This document shows, piece by piece, positions 34,042 through 44,713 of a DNA stretch of 64,000 nt. Numbering within the stretch: position 1 is the first letter of the stretch; every line of letters begins with the position of its first letter. The stretch spans positions 192,001 to 256,000 of the forward strand of contig CAVQNT010000003.1 in NCBI GenBank assembly GCA_963714275.1. The letters run 5' to 3'. A program made the position numbers and the translations under genes. The stretch comes from Candidatus Bathyarchaeota archaeon (GTDB lineage: Archaea > Thermoproteota > Bathyarchaeia > Bathyarchaeales > DTEX01). Below the pieces are notes generated by a model. The model saw only the letters and a program-made list of their open reading frames with translations. It was not told where the DNA came from and ran no database searches.

Positions 34042-35854
34042 ATCTCAGAGACCTTCCAAGAAATTAGCCCCGCGGACTTTTTTTACCGCAACAGGGAAAT
34101 CGCTGGCTTCACTAACCCAGCTCGGGCTATATTTGCCGCGATAAGGGAACTCGTCGAGAACTCTATGGATGCAACCGAAGCTGTAGGCATCCTTCCGGAC
34201 GTCTACATTCGGCTGACGATGGATGGACAAAACGGGACTAACGAAACATACACGCTCAGAGTTATGGACAACGGCTCAGGAATCCCCGCTCACCAGATGC
34301 CCCTTGCGCTTGGACAGTTTCTTTTCAGCTCGAAGTACAAGCTGAAGCAGGCTCGTGGAACCTTCGGGCTGGGCGGAACCATGACGATTCTTTACGGTCA
34401 GATAACGACGAACAAGCCTGTGATTGTCTTTTCAAGCACGGGAACCAGCCGAATCGTCGAATACAGGCTTATGATTGACATCGAGAGAAACCGCCCAATC
34501 ATTCTTGACCGCAAGATTCACGTGAATCCCTCGAAAGATGGCGAAAGGTGGCATGGAACAATCGTTGAGCTTCACCTTGAAGGAAGCTATGCACAAGCCA
34601 GCGCAAAGGTCCTCGAGTACATCAAACAGACAGCCATAGTTAATCCCTACGCGAACATCACCTTCATCGACCCGAAGGGAAAATTCTACAAGTTTTATAG
34701 AACCATAACCGAGATTCCTCCGCCTCCAAGAGAAACCGACCCGCATCCGCACGGAGTAGACGTGGAAACCATACAGAGAATCATCAGGTCTACCAACACG
34801 CGGAACATGCACGACTTCATGCGGAAAAACTTCCACAGAGTCGGAGAAAAAACAGCCACAGAATTCCTCAAAGTAACCAACATCCCAGAAAAAACGAATC
34901 CAAAACGGCTGAGACCCGAAGAAATCGTGACGCTTGTCCAAAAAATGAAGGACTTCGAAGGCTTCCTGCCCCCGGACGCTGCGTGCCTGTCACCGCTTGG
35001 AGAAGAACTGCTCAGAGCAGGAGTCTTGAAGGAGCTTGAACCCGAGTTCGTGGCAGTTCGCCGAAGAAACCCAGCGACCTATTTAGGTCATCCGTTTATT
35101 GTCGAAATCGCTATCAGCTTACGGGGGAAAAGTTCCAGCAAAAGACGAGGTTCTGCTTTACAGATTCGCCAACAAGATTCCCTTGGTTTACGACGAGTCA
35201 GGCGACGTTTGCTGGAGAATAGTGAGGTCGGTGAACTGGAGAAGATACAACGTCGCACCGAACATGCCGGTCGCGGTGCTCATACACCTATGCAGCACAA
35301 AAATCCCGTACAAAACCGTAGGCAAAGAAATAATATCAGACCAAGCTGAAGTCAGCAAAGAAATCCTCAACGCAATCAGAGAAGTAGCACGGGAACTCGC
35401 CCTCTACCTGTCCCGTAAAGAACGTGTCAGACGGCAGGTCAGAAGGCTAAACGTTTTCGCAAGGTACCTTCCAAAAATCGCCCAGTTCTCAGCAGGACTC
35501 AACGGAATCGAAAAGCCGCCTGAAACGGACAGGCTCTACAGAAGCCAGCAGGTCTTCAAGGACCTAACAACAAAAGACGAGTTCACGGACAGCGAACCGT
35601 TCGATTCAAGGCTTTACAGAACAGTACTTGTTCACATAGCAAACAAGCATGAAGCCAACGCCGTGAACATCAAGGTGCTCGGGTTATCTGGTTCGCAGTG
35701 GACGGATCTAATCCCAGAATCCACGCTTACCTCAGGGTCTGAGCTCTACGAGACTCTTAAGGGCAACTTTAAGCAAGTTAAGGTTCAAGTAAAATCGTCA
35801 AAGCCTGGAAAGGAAGGCTTGATAGAGGCATATGTTGATGGCGTAAGCGAATAA
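34042..35854 (+). CDS. top6B: DNA topoisomerase VI subunit B (frameshift near 35115; apparent ATC start; C-terminal extension)
   Basis: Has EISPADFFYRN, ELVENSMDA, DNGSGI, QARGTFGLG, PHPHG and RFANKIPL. Confidence 0.93.
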
Positions 35855-37044: not shown

Positions 37045-37245
37045 ATGAGCAAGTCAATACCAAAATTCGGAGTCGTTTTCGCCGAAAAAGTCCTCGGCAT
37101 CCTGCTTTTCGCCATAGGCATAGTTTTGTCCTACGAAACGTACGGAAATAAGGCGGTTGCTGGAACTTTGGGGTCCATCTTCCTCATAATAGGCATCATC
37201 ATGGCAGCCTTCGGCATAATACTGATTCTAGCAAAAACCGAATAG
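37045..37245 (+). CDS. Small two-helix membrane protein
   Basis: GGAGG precedes the ATG; two hydrophobic segments. Confidence 0.75.
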   Translation: MSKSIPKFGVVFAEKVLGILLFAIGIVLSYETYGNKAVAGTLGSIFLIIGIIMAAFGIILILAKTE

Positions 37246-37420
37246 TTAGCATCGAATTTTTCTGGATATAAGAATATTTATCTTCGCTAACTACTATTCA
37301 TTTTACTGAATTTATCTATTTTCGTGGATCGGTCTTGGATCTCTTTTTCTTTTATCCCAAACGTAATTTCAACAGATTCAAGCGATCTTTGACAAGTTGA
37401 GTTTGTTTACCTTTTCAATA

Positions 37421-38435
37421 TTAGTCTCCCGGCCTGATTTCTTGGCGAAGAAACAGCATGTAGGATGAGGCGAAGCAGACGACTAAACAGACAGCTATCG
37501 CTGCTATTTGCGGCCAAGTTGCCATAAGTCCTTGAGCTGAAATCCAAAGCTCGGAATGGGGTACCGCCGCCTTGGCCTCCAATAAACCCGAATCCTCCGC
37601 CTCCTCTTGTGCCGAGAATCGCTGAGTCTGCTTCATTGTAGAGGTACGCTGGCGAGATCCTTTGAATATTAGTTTGGGTGGCGGACTGTGATTGCATACG
37701 CGCTAGATATTCTTGTGTTTGCGTTTGGTTGAATCCTCCGGGTCTCGTTTGGTTAAATCCTCCGGGGTTGTTGGATCCTCCGCCTGGGTTGAATCCTGAA
37801 GGCAGTTGGATAGGTGCTAGTATGTTGGCTACGAGCATTGCGATGATTGTGATGACGATTGAGAAGAATAGCCATGTGGCGACAGACATGAGTATCGAAG
37901 TCGTTGTTTTCTTCGTCACGATTGAGTACACTAGGCCTAAGGCAAGCCAAAAAGACAAATAAAGTATTGTCAGCAGTGCAAACACTGTTATCCTTGAAAT
38001 AGCTTCAAGGTCTGGACCAAACCCTAGAATGGGTATCGCCACACCTGACATAATGCCTATTGTGCTTCCTGTTAATAGTGAAAGAGCAGCTATTCCTGCA
38101 AGAAACTTGCCGTTGAGGACAGAGTCTCTGTATATTGGCTGAGAGAGAAGTACTGAGAGGCTGCCGCTTGTTTTCTCCTTGTTTATGGCGTCGAAGCCCA
38201 AGGATAACCCGATAATTGGTCCAAAGAAGACCATCAGGGTTGTGAAAGGAAAGCCATTCGTAGCACCAGAAAAGATTGCTACGAAGCCTGCACTGGTGTT
38301 CTCTTTTATGTACTCAGCACCTTGGTATGCCGATAAAGTCGATAAAACTATTATCAAAGTGAAGAACACCATGTAACGTTTACTTCCCAGATTGTCTACG
38401 AGTTCTTTTCTACAAACAGTTAACAAACCCGCCAT
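37421..38435 (-). CDS. ABC-2 type transporter permease (frameshift near C-terminus)
   Basis: Has KEL, GFDAINKEKTSGSL..LLSQP..R and GKF. Contains a Gly/Asn/Gln loop with a duplicated PGGFNQT. Confidence 0.85.
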
Positions 38436-38437
38436 CT

Positions 38438-39376
38438 TTAATCCTCCTCCTTATAGTATTTGAGGAAAATTTCCTCCAAGTCATACTCCTTTTGCTTCAT
38501 CATCAGAATTGTTGAAGCATGCTTCATGATTATCTCTGAAACTTCTTTTGAATTGTTGCGTTCCATGTGTACATGAAGCTTATTACCTTCTTGTTCAACA
38601 AGGGTTACGCCATCAATGCTTTTAATATCCCGAATTAGGTCGGGACTTATCTTTGTCAACTCGAATTCGATGGTAATCTGCTCTTTACCTGACAATTTGC
38701 CAGACAAGTTCTCTATTGTATCCGCGGCCACGAGTTTCCCTCCACGAATGATGCCTACCCTCTGACAGGTTTGCTGGACCTCATGCAACAAGTGCGAGGA
38801 CAAGAATATAGTGAGATCTTGTTCCTTGTTCAGCCTGAACATGATATCCCTTACATCTTTTGTGCCTTGAGGGTCCAACCCGATTGTTGGTTCATCAAAG
38901 AAGGCGACTTTAGGCTTTCTTATCAGCACCTCAGCAATCCCTAATCGCTGCTTCATTCCCCGAGAAAACTTTTCTACCTTAGTGTCAACCCACTTTGTTA
39001 AGTCTACAACCTCAAGAAACTCCTTAATTCTCTTCTCTCTTTCAGGTTTCGGGATATCATTCAATTGAGCGATATATTCGAGGTTTTGTCTTGCGGTTAA
39101 GTCTCCATAATAGCCAGCGCCTTCCGGTAGTATTCCAGCAACCGTTCTTACCTTTCTTGAATCTTTGACGATGTCGTAACCAGTGACTATAGCTGTTCCT
39201 GAAGTCGGCATTGAAAGCCCCATTAACATAAGAAGCGTCGTGGTTTTTCCAGCTCCGTTTGGGCCTAGAAAACCAAATATTTCTCCCTCGTAGACCATTA
39301 GATTCAGATGGTCAACTGCTTTGACGTTTCCGTAGTTTTTTACAAGTTCCTCGGTTTGTATCATAGGTTTGCTCAT
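38438..39376 (-). CDS. ABC transporter ATP-binding protein (exporter type)
   Basis: Has GPNGAGKTT, FSRGMKQR, DEPT.GLD and SSH. Confidence 0.92.
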   Translation of the reverse strand: MSKPMIQTEELVKNYGNVKAVDHLNLMVYEGEIFGFLGPNGAGKTTTLLMLMGLSMPTSGTAIVTGYDIVKDSRKVRTVAGILPEGAGYYGDLTARQNLEYIAQLNDIPKPEREKRIKEFLEVVDLTKWVDTKVEKFSRGMKQRLGIAEVLIRKPKVAFFDEPTIGLDPQGTKDVRDIMFRLNKEQDLTIFLSSHLLHEVQQTCQRVGIIRGGKLVAADTIENLSGKLSGKEQITIEFELTKISPDLIRDIKSIDGVTLVEQEGNKLHVHMERNNSKEVSEIIMKHASTILMMKQKEYDLEEIFLKYYKEED

Positions 39377-39380
39377 TTTT

Positions 39381-40931
39381 TCACCTTCTCTTAAACTTCA
39401 AGAATACTAAGACAAGAGCGACTACGAATATGGCAGCCACGCCAATTCCATATAATCCCCACTCAGTCGAAGTCGTAACCGTAAACCTTACCTGAACTTG
39501 ATCCGACTCAACCTGGTCGCTTAAGCCCGTCAAGGTAACCATGTAATCTCCTGTAACTGCGTCTCCAGGTGCCGTTATAACCACGCTGAACGTAGAAGAC
39601 TCGCTTGATCCGAGAACGTCAACCTTTGTGGGGCTAATTGAGGAATCCCAGTCTGTTGGAACCTCGACGTTTAGACTGACACCTGTGACAGAGGATTGCC
39701 CTGTGTTCGTAACTGTTGCCGTGAACGACGTGGTTCCTCCGGCAGTTATACTTGTCAGAAGTGTTGAAGTCTCCAAGCCTAGAGCATAAGAGCCGACGAT
39801 TGTAGCATTCAGGTTCATCTCCGCGTAGATATCACCGTTTTCTGATTTGATTTGAACAGGTATTTGGTATGTGCTGATATTAGCTGCGCTTGGAGGAGTT
39901 GCCTCAATAACTAAATCCTCAGATTCCCCAGCTGCCATGTAAATCCTCGAAATTTCTAACGTTCCAGATTTGAAAACCACCGTCCAATCAGTAGGAGGCT
40001 CAACAGATAACAATAGAAGCTTATCCGTATCACCTGAGTTTGTTATCGTGATTGGGTACTGCACGACTTTTCCCGCTTCAACCGTTACATCCGGAAATTT
40101 CGTGGTGACCCTGACCTCATCAACACCCTTTACAGGTAACTGTTGAGATTCCGAGAATGCGTAGACAACGTTGCTGGGACCTAAATAACTAACCTCCACA
40201 GTCAAAGGTAGGATTTTTCCTTTCGTACCTGTAGGCACATCTATCTGTAAAGGCAAAGTAATATTATCTCCAGGCTTAAGGTCATCCAAAAACTTAGCAT
40301 TATCTAATTTCGCTTCAAATTCCGCTGATGTACTGCTTGAATAAACTTTTAGTATCTTAATGTTCTTTGCGACTGCATCACCATCGTTGGATAACAGCAG
40401 CGAAATCTGTTGTTTGCCTTCATACAAGTTTTCATTTAATACATTCACGTCTATGTTAGGTTTCCCCGTAACTTCAAATGTTACCTCTAATTCGTCAAGA
40501 CAAAAAAAAGATATTCTAGTGACATAGAATTCAATGTTAAGGTCAGCTGTGTAATTGCCTTTTTCTAGATCACGAATTATGAATATTGGGAATTCCAGCT
40601 TTACTAAAGATCCTGTGGATATGGCTCCAGTATAGTATGTAATGGCCTTGTCTCCGCCTCCTACAGCTTCAAAGCTGTTTGGGAGGGAAAGATTGGCTTC
40701 AATGTTTGAGATAGAATAAGTTGATTCGTACATGAGGACAACAGTTAAGGTGGCAACGTCTCCTGGAGATACCTCTATCTGTTGGTTGGTTCCCCAATAA
40801 GCCTTGACAAATGTGAAATAGCCACTCACTACCAATTTGTCGGATTTAACAGGTGCAGTTAAAACAGGTACAGTGAAAATTGTTAATGTGATAAGAATCA
40901 AAATGGCACATGACAATCTAAATTTTTTCAT
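39381..40931 (-). CDS. Secreted, membrane-anchored S-layer-like protein with tandem Ig-like (NEW3/COG1470-type) domains
   Basis: N-terminal signal peptide, repeated N.G...W...P..GE...P..A..G.Y units, and a C-terminal TM helix with KRR. Confidence 0.8.
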   Translation of the reverse strand: MKKFRLSCAILILITLTIFTVPVLTAPVKSDKLVVSGYFTFVKAYWGTNQQIEVSPGDVATLTVVLMYESTYSISNIEANLSLPNSFEAVGGGDKAITYYTGAISTGSLVKLEFPIFIIRDLEKGNYTADLNIEFYVTRISFFCLDELEVTFEVTGKPNIDVNVLNENLYEGKQQISLLLSNDGDAVAKNIKILKVYSSSTSAEFEAKLDNAKFLDDLKPGDNITLPLQIDVPTGTKGKILPLTVEVSYLGPSNVVYAFSESQQLPVKGVDEVRVTTKFPDVTVEAGKVVQYPITITNSGDTDKLLLLSVEPPTDWTVVFKSGTLEISRIYMAAGESEDLVIEATPPSAANISTYQIPVQIKSENGDIYAEMNLNATIVGSYALGLETSTLLTSITAGGTTSFTATVTNTGQSSVTGVSLNVEVPTDWDSSISPTKVDVLGSSESSTFSVVITAPGDAVTGDYMVTLTGLSDQVESDQVQVRFTVTTSTEWGLYGIGVAAIFVVALVLVFLKFKRR

Positions 40932-40984
40932 TTAACAATTGTCTCCGTTTTTTCAAGGATCATTGATTCATGACTTAAAGTGTC

Positions 40985-40999
40985 TTTCAGAATTATGCC
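40985..40999 (-). promoter_or_regulatory. Operator-like motif GGCATAATTCTGAAA abutting BRE/TATA of the S-layer/ABC operon
   Basis: The minus strand reads GGCATAATTCTGAAAGACACTTTAAG, which is 14/15 identical to the two other copies. Confidence 0.6.
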
Positions 41000-41110
41000 A
41001 AACTCTTCTAAGCGCTCTCGTCAATACACCCATACAGTTCATTTCTTCTGGATTTTTTTTACCCAGAAGAGGGTTTTATTTCGGATTCGGTACACTGGCT
41101 GCAACATTAT

Positions 41111-41263
41111 TTACACTCCAATTGTCGCATTGTTCATCGTGATGGTCATAGCCAAAATATCCAGCTCATTCTCAATGTCTTCACTTTTGCAGCCTTCATT
41201 ACCACATATAGTAAAAAAGGGACCACGATTGTCGTTGGTTTCTAGACTTAAGCTTTGTGCCAT
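41111..41263 (-). CDS. Putative 50-aa small protein or gene remnant
   Basis: ATG 41263 follows GAGGGTG and lies downstream of the motif plus TATA at about 41310-41338. No recognisable motif. Confidence 0.3.
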   Translation of the reverse strand: MAQSLSLETNDNRGPFFTICGNEGCKSEDIENELDILAMTITMNNATIGV

Positions 41264-41315
41264 TTCATACACACCCTCTTCATGGGCTTATTCAAGAAGA
41301 AGAGAAAAAATAATA

Positions 41316-41338
41316 AAAGGATTTTTCAAAATTATGCC
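41316..41338 (-). promoter_or_regulatory. Operator-like motif with BRE/TATA
   Basis: Exact 23-bp reverse complement of 42466-42488 (GGCATAATTTTGAAAAATCCTTT). Confidence 0.65.
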
Positions 41339-41411
41339 TAAATCTATACATAATTGTGCTCGAAGATAGTAAAATTTGTTGCAGGAAAGAATTTGGGTTG
41401 ATATAAGCCTT

Positions 41412-41978
41412 TTAGTATTTTACGCTGAGATAGACTAGAATAGAGAGTGCTACGCACGCAAAAAGGTCCGGCAGCATGGCGAAAGGTCCGAGACCAGAGG
41501 CGCGGAAACCGAAGGGCCACTGTAAAATTGGGTTGGACGTAATGGTGTAGAGAAGCAGAATTGTTGAGAATATTATTAATCCAATTGTGAAGCTTGACTT
41601 GGTCCTGCGGTATATGTCAATATATGTGAACAAAAGAATTATTACGAGAGTTATGTTTACCGTGGAGATCACTGTTTTGATTGTGTAGAACAGTTCTATG
41701 TCTCCAGGAGGAGACGGCTGAATCCCCCACTCTGCCAATCTTGCATTAATGGCCATTCCAATTTCTTCTAGGCTAGCACCATTTCTTCTCATGCTTTCTA
41801 TGAGCTGCTCAATTTCGATTCTGTGTTCTTCAGAAAGGTTTAAGCGTTCCCACCCTTGGCGTTCCAGCGGAGAACCAAAAGGCGCGTTAATAGCCCAAAT
41901 AGTGGCAAGTAGCGCCACCACTACTAAGGTCACTAGAATAAACAATATTCTATAGTCTCGGTTCATCATGAGGCTCAT
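41412..41978 (-). CDS. Membrane protein (four TM helices) with an extracytoplasmic helical loop
   Basis: ATGA overlap with the upstream wHTH gene. The loop contains LNLSEEHR.EI..L. Confidence 0.75.
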   Translation of the reverse strand: MSLMMNRDYRILFILVTLVVVALLATIWAINAPFGSPLERQGWERLNLSEEHRIEIEQLIESMRRNGASLEEIGMAINARLAEWGIQPSPPGDIELFYTIKTVISTVNITLVIILLFTYIDIYRRTKSSFTIGLIIFSTILLLYTITSNPILQWPFGFRASGLGPFAMLPDLFACVALSILVYLSVKY

Positions 41979-42298
41979 TTGTTTTCCTCCCTTTTTTCTT
42001 TTTTCCCAAATCTTTCCCAAATCTCTTCAAACACTACGTAATTTAATTCCATTTCTGGGGACAGAAAATACGTAAGACCGTACCTGTCTCCAGCGGAAAC
42101 AATTATTCTGTTCTTCTCTAAGACTTTTAGATGGTGCCTTATCGTCCGATAGTCCATTTCAATAAGGTTCGCCAACTGATTCGCATTTTTCGGAGTTTCC
42201 TTCAGAGCCAAAATTATTTGGGCGCGGCTGACTCCTCCTCTAGTGCCAGCTATGAGCCATCCTAGAACATATTTCAGTGGGCGAGCGTCATAGGACAT
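41975..42298 (-). CDS. ArsR-like winged helix-turn-helix regulator
   Basis: Has WLIAGTRGG..R..I, NANQLA, DY.TIRHHL.VL.KN and YG..YF. Confidence 0.88.
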   Translation of the reverse strand: MSYDARPLKYVLGWLIAGTRGGVSRAQIILALKETPKNANQLANLIEMDYRTIRHHLKVLEKNRIIVSAGDRYGLTYFLSPEMELNYVVFEEIWERFGKKEKREENK

Positions 42299-42465
42299 TC
42301 GTACAGCTCCGAAAGAGTGAGGTATGGGAATTATGTTTCTACTGAATTTATTTAGGTTATGGTAATAATAAATTCCCTTGTTATTAGGAGTTTAAGACTT
42401 GAAATAAAAGCCCATTTTTTCAGTCTAAAAACACGTCTATTTCATAACGTTAATAATTGGATTAT

Positions 42466-42488
42466 GGCATAATTTTGAAAAATCCTTT
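42466..42488 (+). promoter_or_regulatory. Operator-like motif with BRE/TATA of the htrA-like gene
   Basis: GGCATAATTTTGAAAAATCCTTTAATAA lies about 35-60 bp upstream of the start at 42527. Confidence 0.65.
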
Positions 42489-42526
42489 AATAACCATGGG
42501 TCGCTGTAAAAAATGAGGATTGGACC

Positions 42527-43768
42527 TTGGAAACTTCCCCAAAACCGAAAATGAAAGTTTTTGTAGCTATTTTGGTTATCACCGCAGTCGCAGGACTTCT
42601 TGTTGGAGGCTGGCTTGGCTATTTTATTAGTAGCTCAACAGCTTCCGAAAGGATTGATGTCCTACAAAATGAATTGACGACGCTTCAACAACAAGTTCAG
42701 ACCCTTCAAATAGTGAATAAAGTCACTTACCAGAATATTACTTATATTTTAGGAGAGAATGTTTCTCTTTCTCGACTGTACGAGCGAATCGAAAATTCCA
42801 TCGTTGTGATACGAGGGCTGATATTGGAATACGATATCTTTAGGCGTCCCTATTACACTCAAATTCAAGGAACAGGATTCGTCTACAACTTCTCTGGAGA
42901 AATGGTGATTCTCACAAACTACCATGTGGTGGGTGGCGCAATCAACGTCACAGTAACATTCGTGAACGGAAACGGGTACACCGCTTCAGTGTTGGGTTCA
43001 GATCCTTACGCGGACCTTGCAGTGCTTTCAACCGATGCGCCGTACAGTGAGTATAGTCCGCTTGAAATCGTTAACTCGTCGACCCTAATGGTTGGTGAAC
43101 CAGTATTGACGGTCGGCAACCCGTATGGACTAGCAGGATCAATAACTACCGGGATAGTAAGTGCGATGGGCAGAACAATAACTGAGGAAGCGTCAGGTTC
43201 CTACGCAATAGCCGACGTTATTCAGACAACAGCTTTATTGAACCCAGGCAATTCAGGGGGTCCACTTCTGGACTACAAAGGCCAAGTCGTAGGCATAACA
43301 ACAGCCATCGTAAGCGGTTCGCAGGGATTGAGCTTCGCAATTCCCTCAAACACAATATTACGTGAAATTGATTCCCTCATGTCAACGGGCTCTTACAATA
43401 AGCATTCGTGGCTGGGCGTAGCTGGGGCAGACATGACCTATGAAATCGCAGAAGCAATGAACACCAACGTAACTTACGGATGGCTAATAACTCAAGTTAC
43501 GAGCAATGGACCAGCGGACAACGCGGGTTTACGGGGCGGAACAAAACAAGTTGTGGTCGCTGGAGAATACGTCATAATTGGTGGCGACGTGATAAAAGCA
43601 GTCGACGGAACAAGAATTACGAGCATGGACGACCTCTTAACTTATTTGGAAACATACACTGTGCCGGGACAAACAATCAACATGACGATAGTGAGAAACA
43701 ACCAGATAATCACACTTCAGGTTGAATTAGGAACACGACCTTTACTGAGCTCAGCTAGAATATTATGA
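42527..43768 (+). CDS. Membrane-anchored HtrA/DegP-type serine protease with PDZ domain
   Basis: N-terminal TM and coiled coil, TNYHVV, DLAVL, NPGNSGGPL and a C-terminal PDZ domain. Confidence 0.92.
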   Translation: METSPKPKMKVFVAILVITAVAGLLVGGWLGYFISSSTASERIDVLQNELTTLQQQVQTLQIVNKVTYQNITYILGENVSLSRLYERIENSIVVIRGLILEYDIFRRPYYTQIQGTGFVYNFSGEMVILTNYHVVGGAINVTVTFVNGNGYTASVLGSDPYADLAVLSTDAPYSEYSPLEIVNSSTLMVGEPVLTVGNPYGLAGSITTGIVSAMGRTITEEASGSYAIADVIQTTALLNPGNSGGPLLDYKGQVVGITTAIVSGSQGLSFAIPSNTILREIDSLMSTGSYNKHSWLGVAGADMTYEIAEAMNTNVTYGWLITQVTSNGPADNAGLRGGTKQVVVAGEYVIIGGDVIKAVDGTRITSMDDLLTYLETYTVPGQTINMTIVRNNQIITLQVELGTRPLLSSARIL

Positions 43769-43950
43769 ATTTAATGACTTTTTTAGAACAAATTCACGAC
43801 TATAATCGTTAAAATGGTACAAGCAAAAACCGGATAATTGTTGTAGTCTAGATTCGTCGTTAAAGACAACTTGGTTTCTTCTTTTTTGGAAAAGCGTTAT
43901 CTTCATTGTACGTGAAAGATATTAGCGGTTCAAAGTTTAAAGGTGAAAAC

Positions 43951-44713
43951 ATGACTCAGAACATTGTTTCATGTCGCCCTGCGAGTTATGGAAGATATCA
44001 AGACAAATCGTATGAGCATTTGATAAAGATTGGCATACGCCATGTTGAGTTGCCAATGCCGAAGATTCAAGATGTAAACAAAGTCCGCGAAGAGCTAGAT
44101 AAGCACGGTTTGTCTGTCGCAAGCCTCGAGTCTCCCTGCAACATCCAGAATGAAAACGTAAAAGAAGAATTCAAGACCGCTATTGGAATAGCTAAAGAAT
44201 TCAAGGCAAAAAGGATGTTCGTGAGCGTTCACGCTGACAAACTTGAAAAGAAAACCGCCTACGAGAGACTAAGAAAACTGGGCGACCTAGCAGCAGAGAA
44301 AGGACTCATCATTGTTCTTGAGACCCACCCGGACTTGGTTACAAACGGCAACGTGTGCCTTCAAACCATGAAGGGCATAGACCACCCCAACGTGAAGGTA
44401 AACTACGATACTGCTAACATGCTACTTTTACAACGAAGCCATCGATGACTTAGAGGAAATGAAGAAAATCCTAGACTACATTGAAGGCGTCCATCTGAAA
44501 GACACAAACGGAAAATACCAAACATGGCATTTCCCAGCTCTCGGCGAAGGAATCATAAACTTTGCTGAAATCCGTGGATTGCTCAACAAACGAGGCTTCT
44601 ACGGACCGTTCACGATAGAGATTGAAGGAATCAAAGGTGAAAACCTCTCCCTCGCTCAGACACTTGAAAGAATGGAGAAATCCGTAAAGCACCTAAGAAA
44701 ATGCGGATTCTAA
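43951..44713 (+). CDS. Sugar phosphate isomerase/epimerase (AP endonuclease 2 TIM barrel), frameshifted
   Basis: Has LETHP, NYDTAN, VHLKD, LGEG and TIEIE. Confidence 0.85.

Follow-up and report, generated by a model that had tools for sequence, protein, structure and literature searches.

A 64,000-nt stretch of DNA from a Candidatus Bathyarchaeota archaeon contains a winged helix-turn-helix (wHTH) gene that overlaps a gene for a membrane protein of the Pfam family DUF8036, and copies of one promoter module bracket these two genes, here called the pair. We refer to the whole stretch as the window; it covers C3:192001-256000 of an assembly of 2,643,548 bp in 10 contigs, and its genome is labelled G000. 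We consider it probable that the pair encodes a kinase-free two-protein module of Bathyarchaeia and some other archaea, which governs a small regulon for the quality control of exported and membrane proteins. Gene order and promoter sequence give good support to a putative local regulon for envelope quality control. Histidine kinase, response regulator, sigma and anti-sigma domains were absent from the locus proteins in Pfam and NCBIfam scans.

The promoter module and its targets

The first-pass annotation of this DNA, made from its letters, had proposed that the wHTH gene is translationally coupled to a protein with four transmembrane (TM) helices, and that the pair lies between a divergent, membrane-anchored HtrA/PDZ protease and an operon for a surface protein and ATP-binding cassette (ABC) components. 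Both proposals hold. The reading frames overlap by four nucleotides, the AlphaFold2 (AF2) model of the membrane protein has four long helices, and coordinates and Pfam domains confirm the flanking genes. The features that carry the argument are the following, with bit scores from the position weight matrix (PWM) described below.

41975-42298, minus strand: wHTH regulator, 107 aa (Pfam HTH_5, E 4.6e-8)
41412-41978, minus strand: DUF8036 membrane protein, 188 aa; its ATG overlaps the wHTH stop codon (ATGA, 41975-41978)
42527-43768, plus strand: HtrA/DegP-family serine protease, membrane-anchored, with one PDZ domain (Trypsin_2 E 1.3e-29, PDZ_2 E 1.4e-10)
42455-42494, plus strand: site C, module pointing at HtrA; 47.4 bits, the best in the genome; three 11-nt-phased ATTnnG repeats, GAAAAA and TTTAATAA
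41310-41349, minus strand: site B, module directly 3' of the DUF8036 gene; 44.7 bits
40971-41010, minus strand: site A, module pointing at the surface-protein/ABC-2 operon; 31.1 bits; weaker, with GAAAGAC and TTTAAGT

The HtrA gene, divergent from the pair, has the domain order expected of its family, trypsin-like (104 bits) then PDZ (41.8 bits), and its translation shows the serine motif GNSGGP; against the NCBIfam Do-family it reaches E 8.7e-75 and 252 bits, under the cut-off of 416.

At the core of the three window sites is the 15-mer GGCATAATTYTGAAA, which had been reported from the first reading and is indeed exact at 40985-40999 (minus), 41324-41338 (minus) and 42466-42480 (plus). These are its sole exact matches in the whole genome, and the reversed control has none. 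Within the window alone, allowing up to two mismatches gives a weak test (three matches against 0.50 expected, with 4/100 shuffles reaching three). Copies B and C share the 23 identical nucleotides noticed in that reading, GGCATAATTTTGAAAAATCCTTT, and form inverted repeats that bracket the gene pair with 91% identity over 32 nt. A TATA-like CTTTWA lies 8 nt after every copy. Two further matches with one mismatch (C3:47760 and C4:30236) score under 14 bits by PWM and were taken as chance.

A 40-nt PWM trained on 18 sites from relatives only, and then run genome-wide on G000, recovered the three window sites at the scores listed above and a fourth strong site at 34.2 bits (C4:152421-152460); the next match scored 21.4 bits, and the maximum in three shuffled genomes was 16.5 bits. 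The fourth site precedes genes for a 47-aa YHS/TRASH-type protein and a second M48/HtpX paralog (span to 153656). Another conserved promoter box, AGAGTAACAATTATATC, precedes the core HtpX gene on contig C7.

Alignment of 69 distinct sites gave the consensus ATT..Gaa.aaATTttGGTaTAATTCTGAAAAAccCTTTtATA and a module of ~40 nt in which ATTnnG direct repeats stand at positions -4, 7 and 18, an 11-nt period, with conservation rising promoter-ward. The third repeat merges into an almost invariant GAAAAA, followed 3 nt on by TTTWATA, and the distance and orientation from repeat to TTTWATA are constant in all 69 sites. The consensus of the archaeal transcription factor B recognition element (BRE) is RNWAAW; GAAAAA matches it and occupies its place. 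Because only 3/135 TATA-aligned upstream regions of this genome (from crude gene calls) have GAAAAA at this position, we do not regard the block as a general property of promoters here. For the commonest target, which we label T1, start codons lie 32-34 nt past the scored module, a distance that fits a short leader.

We followed pair and module through a set of 41 related genomes, searching for the pair by homologs of both proteins. DUF8036 occurs in 13/41 relatives, the wHTH in 14/41 and both in 13, and the two genes are adjacent in 12/12 relatives' loci examined. A motif site occupies the position of site B, just past the membrane gene, in 9/12 of these loci, and several have one before the divergent gene. 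A strict 21-nt pattern matched 16 times in the 41 genomes (0 for the reversed control), with 12/16 matches at the locus of the pair; it is found in 9/13 pair-bearing genomes compared with 2/28 others. One complete genome, G040, has both pair and motif. HtrA loci follow the same division: a site above 16 bits accompanies 7/11 in pair-bearing genomes and 1/19 in the rest.

A wider survey, in which a DUF8036-alignment scan was reduced to one genome per species, yielded 63 loci, mostly from Bathyarchaeia, with a few from metagenome-assembled genomes (MAGs) labelled Methanocellaceae, Thorarchaeota, Thermoplasmata or Nitrososphaeria. In 55/57 loci with sufficient upstream sequence, a wHTH gene lies directly upstream of DUF8036 on the same strand. 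With the PWM rebuilt on 21 sites and a threshold of 25 bits, 71 sites were found in 50/63 loci; setting aside six loci that share contigs with the training set left 61 sites in 45/57 loci, and the column-reversed matrix and five column-shuffled matrices found none. Because the proteins are just 45-65% identical and the flanks are unconserved, we take the persistence of the element as a sign of selection.

The genes that follow the sites support the idea, also raised in the first reading, of a regulon resembling the outputs of bacterial envelope-stress systems, in that sites precede genes for HtrA, ABC exporters, an HtpX paralog and CpxP/Spy-like secreted proteins. First genes after the 71 sites are T1 (19), HtrA (15), an FtsX/MacB permease (11), a surface protein (2), ectodomain-like proteins (2), a small open reading frame (ORF; 1) and a sugar-phosphate isomerase-like gene (1), with 20 uncategorised. 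The isomerase-like target is in G004, where HtrA is gone and its promoter has been left behind. MacB-type permease targets carry FtsX and MacB_PCD domains, with an ATPase gene next. The uncategorised genes include 774-801-aa CarboxypepD_reg/NPCBM_assoc surface proteins followed by ABC-2-type ATPases; since these operons carry the module, the surface-protein/ABC-2 operon is a recurrent target in other lineages too. Others encode ABC ATPases, a UbiA-family protein and signal-anchored helical proteins, one of which passes the Pfam Metal_resist cut-off (31.5 versus 29.2 bits) with a sub-threshold LTXXQ match. T1 proteins (160-186 aa; for example, L026:8041-8601, L023:7850-8386 and L079:849-1337) have an N-terminal anchor, a C-terminus ending ...VIEKS and no Pfam match; a MacB-type ABC pair usually comes next, and T1 could be an accessory subunit of this transporter.

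The putative regulator and its membrane partner

The wHTH protein belongs to the ArsR/SmtB type by Pfam HTH_5 (33.2 bits, cut-off 22). Its AF2 model (predicted local distance difference test (pLDDT) score 86) has elements in the order H-H-H-H-E-E-H, with an extra N-terminal helix and a long C-terminal helix, and Foldseek aligned it to SmtB, CzrA, HlyU and SqrR with TM-scores of 0.60-0.71 (E about 5e-4 to 1e-3), MarR-type structures also being matched. The best NCBIfam match is the SdpR family NF033789, at 31.6 bits and thus under the cut-off of 100 for membership. The best PDB sequence match is 2p4w, an 'arsR family' chain (E 0.0014), which we take to be the Pyrococcus furiosus heat-shock repressor Phr. 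Metal sites of ArsR/SmtB proteins consist of an alpha3N cysteine pair or of alpha5 Asp/His/Glu residues. The 107 aa of the wHTH lack both cysteine and an alpha5-type His/Asp/Glu cluster, which makes it unlikely to be a classical metal sensor; its sole invariant histidines, H55 and H56, form an RHHL pair in the recognition helix. Also conserved are a hydrophobic N-terminal helix (LKYVLGWLIAG) and a basic C-terminal tail (FEEIWE+FGKKEKR), which we put forward, speculatively, as candidates for membrane or partner contact.

The membrane protein owes its family name to the precomputed label PF26119 (DUF8036) on 120/120 of the homologs listed, one of them 98% identical, and to sequence-atlas clusters that are also labelled DUF8036; a Pfam profile scan of the window protein itself gave no family and noise only at E<=10, with PF26119 appearing in no scan. 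In its AF2 model (pLDDT 77) the four long helices fit TM spans, and a two-helix ectodomain follows TM1 at about residues 45-87, with the hairpin of the model at residues 50-83. The model had no PDB fold match at E<=0.001. The conserved part of the family is a core of three TM helices with the loop FGFRAFGLGPFAMLPD, and short forms consist of this core alone. By the positive-inside rule, both the hairpin and the FGFRAFGLGPFAMLPD loop would face outward.

The hairpin carries the pattern (W)xxLTxEQ...EIEQL...GAS.EEI...KL.EWGI, and we call it the LTxEQ module. The copy in the window protein shares 37% identity over 41 aa with the module at the C-terminus of a secreted protein that another species encodes behind a motif site (pairwise E 1e-7). 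Searching the wide-set loci with 27 ectodomain queries placed the module inside the DUF8036 gene in 20 loci and in a separate protein beside a short DUF8036 in six. In five of these six separate proteins the module is present in one to three copies, and the called ORFs of four include an N-terminal signal or anchor; the remaining one, the Metal_resist protein, matched only itself in this search and is linked to the ectodomain by a weak pairwise match (E 8e-4). Fusion and fission of this kind point to joint action of the module and the 3-TM core. Moreover, because separate module genes sit under the motif (4/6 lie directly downstream of a site), the presumed sensor input of split systems is itself a product of the regulon.

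Three further module proteins score below threshold for the CpxP/Spy-type families (LTXXQ 17.7-19.9 versus 24.3 bits; Metal_resist 24.9 and 17.3 versus 29.2 bits), and the window DUF8036 had no LTXXQ or Metal_resist match in the Pfam scan at E<=10. Secreted proteins at L149:4030-4761, L168:2151-2645 and L134:2409-2900 contain two or three tandem modules of ~45 aa (PPWMxxLTDEQKxEIEQLMQSMRDSGATQEEIRDAVxAKLQEWGI), which appear to be an unnamed archaeal repeat family whose similarity to LTXXQ/Metal_resist is sub-threshold.

Mode of control, competing explanations and local history

The pair could operate as follows. Overlap of the genes at ATGA would have wHTH and DUF8036 made in a fixed ratio. 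The wHTH would bind the three 11-bp-spaced ATTnnG repeats as a head-to-tail oligomer that reaches the BRE position and the near-consensus TATA box. In G000 the module would drive four units: htrA, the surface-protein/ABC-2 operon, a MacB-type leader with a permease relic, and the YHS-htpX operon. DUF8036 would sense the state of the envelope through its outward, CpxP/Spy/ZraP-like LTxEQ hairpin and its conserved outer loop; where DUF8036 is short, a regulon gene would supply the LTxEQ module as a separate secreted protein. The state of the sensor would then set the amount of wHTH free for DNA. In the version we prefer, which resembles SdpR/SdpI, the wHTH would repress at the BRE-proximal repeat until stress leads DUF8036 to capture it at the membrane. 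In the mirror version, an activator would be held at the membrane and freed by stress.

The gene pair, the element with its conservation and exclusivity, and the genes behind it are observed; the steps proposed above differ in strength. The distribution of the element around the pair makes it quite likely that the wHTH is the protein that binds the motif. We infer, with rather better than even confidence, that DUF8036 controls the wHTH; co-folding of the two proteins gave an ipSAE of 0.00 in two runs without controls and speaks neither way. On the direction of control we lean slightly towards repression, to which the ArsR/SmtB-like fold, the best NCBIfam match to SdpR and the near-consensus TATA with its BRE-like block all point. 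So does the retention, in genome G001, of T1-HtrA promoters where the pair was not found.

Several observations weigh against the proposed scheme as a whole. First, the link between wHTH and motif is one of co-localisation only, and the genomes compared are kin, so locus counts are not independent trials. Second, the correspondence between pair and element is incomplete in both directions: a site above 25 bits is missing from 13/63 wide-set loci, no site scoring over 14 bits accompanies the orphan wHTH of G008 or the divergent pairs of G014 and G020, and G001 has strong sites (37.2 and 33.5 bits) though wHTH and DUF8036 were not found there. Third, a half-motif, AGATTnnGGYATAATTYTGAG, precedes core htpX in G001, G003 and G005, where the pair was likewise not found. 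Fourth, the wHTH gene itself lacks a conserved copy of the element directed at its start, so SdpR-type autoregulation is not evident. Fifth, DUF8036 is predicted to expose very little to the cytoplasm (a short N-terminus, an RRTKSS loop and a C-terminal K(Y)), which leaves no obvious interface for capture. Finally, the fixed TATA spacing and the direct repeats would also suit an activator. As to the wHTH promoter, an CTGAAAAA..CTTTTATTT stretch ~105-130 nt upstream of the gene in G000 and G002 has a different spacing and is unconserved beyond these genomes; we rejected it as evidence of autoregulation.

The strongest rival keeps the same regulon and makes the wHTH an activator that recruits the basal factors TFB and TBP, with DUF8036 holding it inactive until stress in the manner of an anti-sigma factor. 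PhoB acts through pho boxes, and the archaeal activators GvpE, EarA and TFB-RF1 bind directly upstream of the BRE. The single spacing and orientation in all 69 sites is what stereospecific contact with the basal machinery would require, the start region is free of overlap with any site, activators that stand in for an upstream promoter element typically use direct repeats phased at 11 bp, and overlapping genes provide the fixed stoichiometry usual for factor/anti-factor pairs. By contrast, promoters with a near-consensus TATA and a GAAAAA block resembling the BRE look strong unaided, and the ArsR/SmtB and SdpR relatives of the wHTH are repressors, as is 2p4w if it is Phr. Retention of the T1-HtrA promoters by G001 also tells against dependence on an activator. 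As an account of the whole system we judge activation rather unlikely; on the sign alone we prefer, by a small margin, repression relieved by capture at the membrane.

A second rival, to which we assign a low probability, is that another, unlinked factor reads the element and that the pair is a mere neighbour, or a member of the stress cluster with a different job, such as sensing membrane-active compounds for its own operon. G001 speaks for it. In this 98% complete genome, the two sites (locus at C27:1-4184) face outward, 660 nt apart, with no pair ORF between them; they are placed to drive T1-HtrA, and both are altered in the GAAAAA block. The locus looks like one that has lost the regulator pair and kept the promoters. 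The HtrA gene there holds one in-frame TAA.

The half-motif at core htpX would also fit another factor that reads part of the element; it is missing in the pair-bearing genomes G000, G002 and G004, and the pair's own promoter has no conserved element copy. In G001, G003 and G005 the half-motif is fused to the htpX promoter box. G003 and G005, however, are 71% and 87% complete, and the pair may be merely unassembled there. Other evidence speaks against an unlinked factor: the element is nearly confined to the flanks of the pair (12/16 strict matches, 3/4 strong G000 sites and 45/57 loci), HtrA genes carry a site in 1/19 loci without the pair compared with 7/11 with it, and genes of the regulon themselves encode the DUF8036 ectodomain module. 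Among HtpX orthologs in relatives, only the C4 paralog of G000 has a strong site upstream; because its closest orthologs, in G007 and G013, have no site above 16 bits, the link of HtpX to the module is lineage-specific.

Local history bears on the last alternatives. Three small features lie between sites B and A:

41111-41263, minus strand: short ORF or leader following site B; 50 aa in the window and 28 aa in G002; gene status uncertain
41044-41071, minus strand: 10-bp RNA hairpin between the small ORF and the relic permease; -14.5 kcal/mol, z -3.55, 0/200 shuffles as stable
41004-41042, minus strand: relic of a MacB-type (FtsX) permease, its first 13 codons (MNCMGVLTRALR.), fused to site A

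The small ORF keeps its first ~25 codons and a GAGGGTG Shine-Dalgarno-like box in two congeners and nothing further; it had no Pfam or NCBIfam match and may be a leader peptide or no gene. The first-pass annotation held that every motif copy runs into a BRE/TATA pointing at a downstream gene. The promoter half of that statement stands, since CTTTWA follows each copy, and the other half needs amending at copy B, which precedes the uncertain 50-aa ORF, the hairpin and the permease relic. Downstream of site B, G002 has a 28-codon ORF, the hairpin, an intact 455-aa MacB-type permease and its ATPase. The window and G004 retain no more of this permease than its first 13 codons, joined directly to site A and the surface-protein/ABC-2 operon. 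Replacement of the ancestral MacB operon by another regulon operon, each with its own module copy, explains the presence of two sites within 340 nt.

Such recombination, by which the surface-protein/ABC-2 operon was demonstrably inserted at site A, and the 91% identity of B and C over 32 nt, inverted around the pair, could suggest that one promoter was recently duplicated or inverted and has no regulator of its own, just as the YHS and Metal_resist-family targets could suggest an ArsR-type metal sensor for Cu/Zn efflux; we give both very little credence, because the module stands at orthologous and non-orthologous positions in many species whose proteins are 45-65% identical and whose intergenic flanks are unconserved, the 61 sites in 45/57 loci (none with control matrices) contradict the local duplication that the first reading had named as a threat to its proposal, the wHTH lacks cysteines and an alpha5-type cluster and conserves histidines only in its recognition helix, and the targets are mostly proteases and MacB/ABC-2-type exporters rather than metal pumps.

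The operon downstream of site A, whose surface-protein gene is separated from the membrane gene by a spacer of 480 bp, consists of three genes:

39381-40931, minus strand: secreted, C-terminally anchored surface protein with NPCBM_assoc/CARDB immunoglobulin-like repeats (NPCBM_assoc E 1.5e-24)
38438-39376, minus strand: DrrA-like ABC ATPase (ABC_tran E 1.6e-28; drrA subfamily E 7.4e-86, under cut-off)
37407-38435, minus strand: ABC-2 family permease (ABC2_membrane_2 E 7.2e-38), 3' end apparently frameshifted

The apparent frameshift in the permease gene is near codon 295, as judged from a two-frame tblastn match to G004 and an alternative ORF at 37421-37636; the hydrophobic C-terminus kept in G004 (...SSYMLFLRQEIRPGD) lies here in the other frame, ending at 37421. 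Two further genes are interrupted. Topoisomerase VI subunit B (34165-35854, plus strand) occupies two overlapping frames of 394 and 251 aa, compared with a single 570-aa ORF in G002, and a sugar-phosphate isomerase-like gene (43906-44713, plus strand) is split into 180 and 84 aa, compared with 280 aa in G002. Three broken genes within 10 kb suggest assembly indel errors rather than true pseudogenes. A 66-aa ORF with two TM helices and a weak DUF308 match (E 0.0075) lies at 37045-37245 (plus strand), between the permease and topoisomerase VI subunit A. The 24 sequencing runs listed for 37400-43800 are all DNA runs. An Rfam scan of 40900-42600 gave 0 matches at E<=1, and a scan for bacterial-type promoters and terminators, a method ill-suited to archaea, gave nothing exceeding shuffles.

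Parallels with known systems and wider meaning

The principle of a wHTH controlled, without a kinase, by a co-encoded membrane protein is known from SdpR/SdpI. In Bacillus subtilis, SdpR is an ArsR-family autorepressor that is sequestered at the membrane by SdpI, a polytopic immunity/signal protein, and there, as here, the wHTH gene lies directly upstream of its partner and is coupled to it, with no kinase. One study of the SdpI family describes a unit of three TM segments that is proposed to bind the regulator (PMC2910880), and DUF8036 likewise has a conserved 3-TM core. The differences are substantial. The wHTH falls far below the SdpR cut-off (31.6 versus 100 bits), the DUF8036 forms scanned (n=3) had no SdpI match in Pfam at E<=10, the locus has no toxin gene, and its promoters are archaeal in architecture. 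Furthermore, the targets here are outward-facing promoters of genes for proteases, chaperone-like proteins and exporters rather than the pair's own operon.

The Cpx and sigmaE/RseA systems of Escherichia coli have as outputs DegP/HtrA, HtpX and an LTXXQ protein of the CpxP/Spy/ZraP type, and in Cpx, CpxP is a regulon product that is also part of the sensor input. The output set found here is similar: HtrA, HtpX and an LTxEQ module that either forms part of the sensor or is secreted as a regulon product. In contrast to Cpx and sigmaE, the locus has no histidine kinase, response regulator, sigma factor or site-1/site-2 protease, and only one secreted protein passes an LTXXQ-clan cut-off (Metal_resist). 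The system is thus Cpx-like by content, yet no member of Cpx.

Phr-type regulators share with the wHTH an archaeal ArsR-type domain and a link to stress genes, with a weak match to 2p4w; that chain, however, has 202 aa, a long C-terminal helical part and no membrane partner. The operator of Phr overlaps the transcription start rather than sitting upstream of TATA. Kinase-free HTH regulators that work from the membrane are reported in archaea, namely ArnR and ArnR1 of Sulfolobus and transmembrane transcription regulators (PMC6396743, PMC10269533). These are single polypeptides with their own TM helices, whereas here the function would be divided between two proteins, with DUF8036 as the membrane part. 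A literature search found no published account of DUF8036, and searches on archaeal HtrA or envelope-stress regulators, Bathyarchaeia ArsR regulators, archaeal LTXXQ proteins and membrane-bound archaeal transcription factors gave, in the partial texts they returned, no description of the system. What appears to be new are the components (DUF8036 and the LTxEQ input), the operator architecture and the archaeal target set.

More broadly, and as a tentative proposal, these genes may represent the first recognisable extracytoplasmic stress response of Archaea. In such a response, a DUF8036 sensor, with its LTxEQ input either fused or secreted in trans as feedback, would set the activity of a soluble wHTH that polymerises head-to-tail on the three repeats abutting BRE/TATA and switches htrA, htpX, LTxEQ genes and MacB/ABC-2 exporters. 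Such a system would parallel Cpx by convergence while dispensing with a kinase, and it would be spread through Bathyarchaeia, with further occurrences in MAGs labelled Thermoplasmata, Methanocellaceae, Nitrososphaeria and Thorarchaeota.

To our knowledge, next to nothing has been established about the way in which archaea detect and mend damage to their exported and membrane proteins. The system described here is compact, comprising a 107-aa regulator, a 188-aa membrane partner, a 40-bp operator/promoter of clear repeat structure and targets that are conserved in many uncultured lineages. For Bathyarchaeia, a major group of sediment archaea that lacks genetics, it would be the first regulon and cis-element to be defined, and it would assign a candidate role to a Pfam family of unknown function, DUF8036. 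The element could serve as a marker in metagenomes for envelope quality-control genes, such as those of the T1 family. More generally, the system would show that Cpx-like logic can be built without kinases, with a chaperone-like module that is both input and output.

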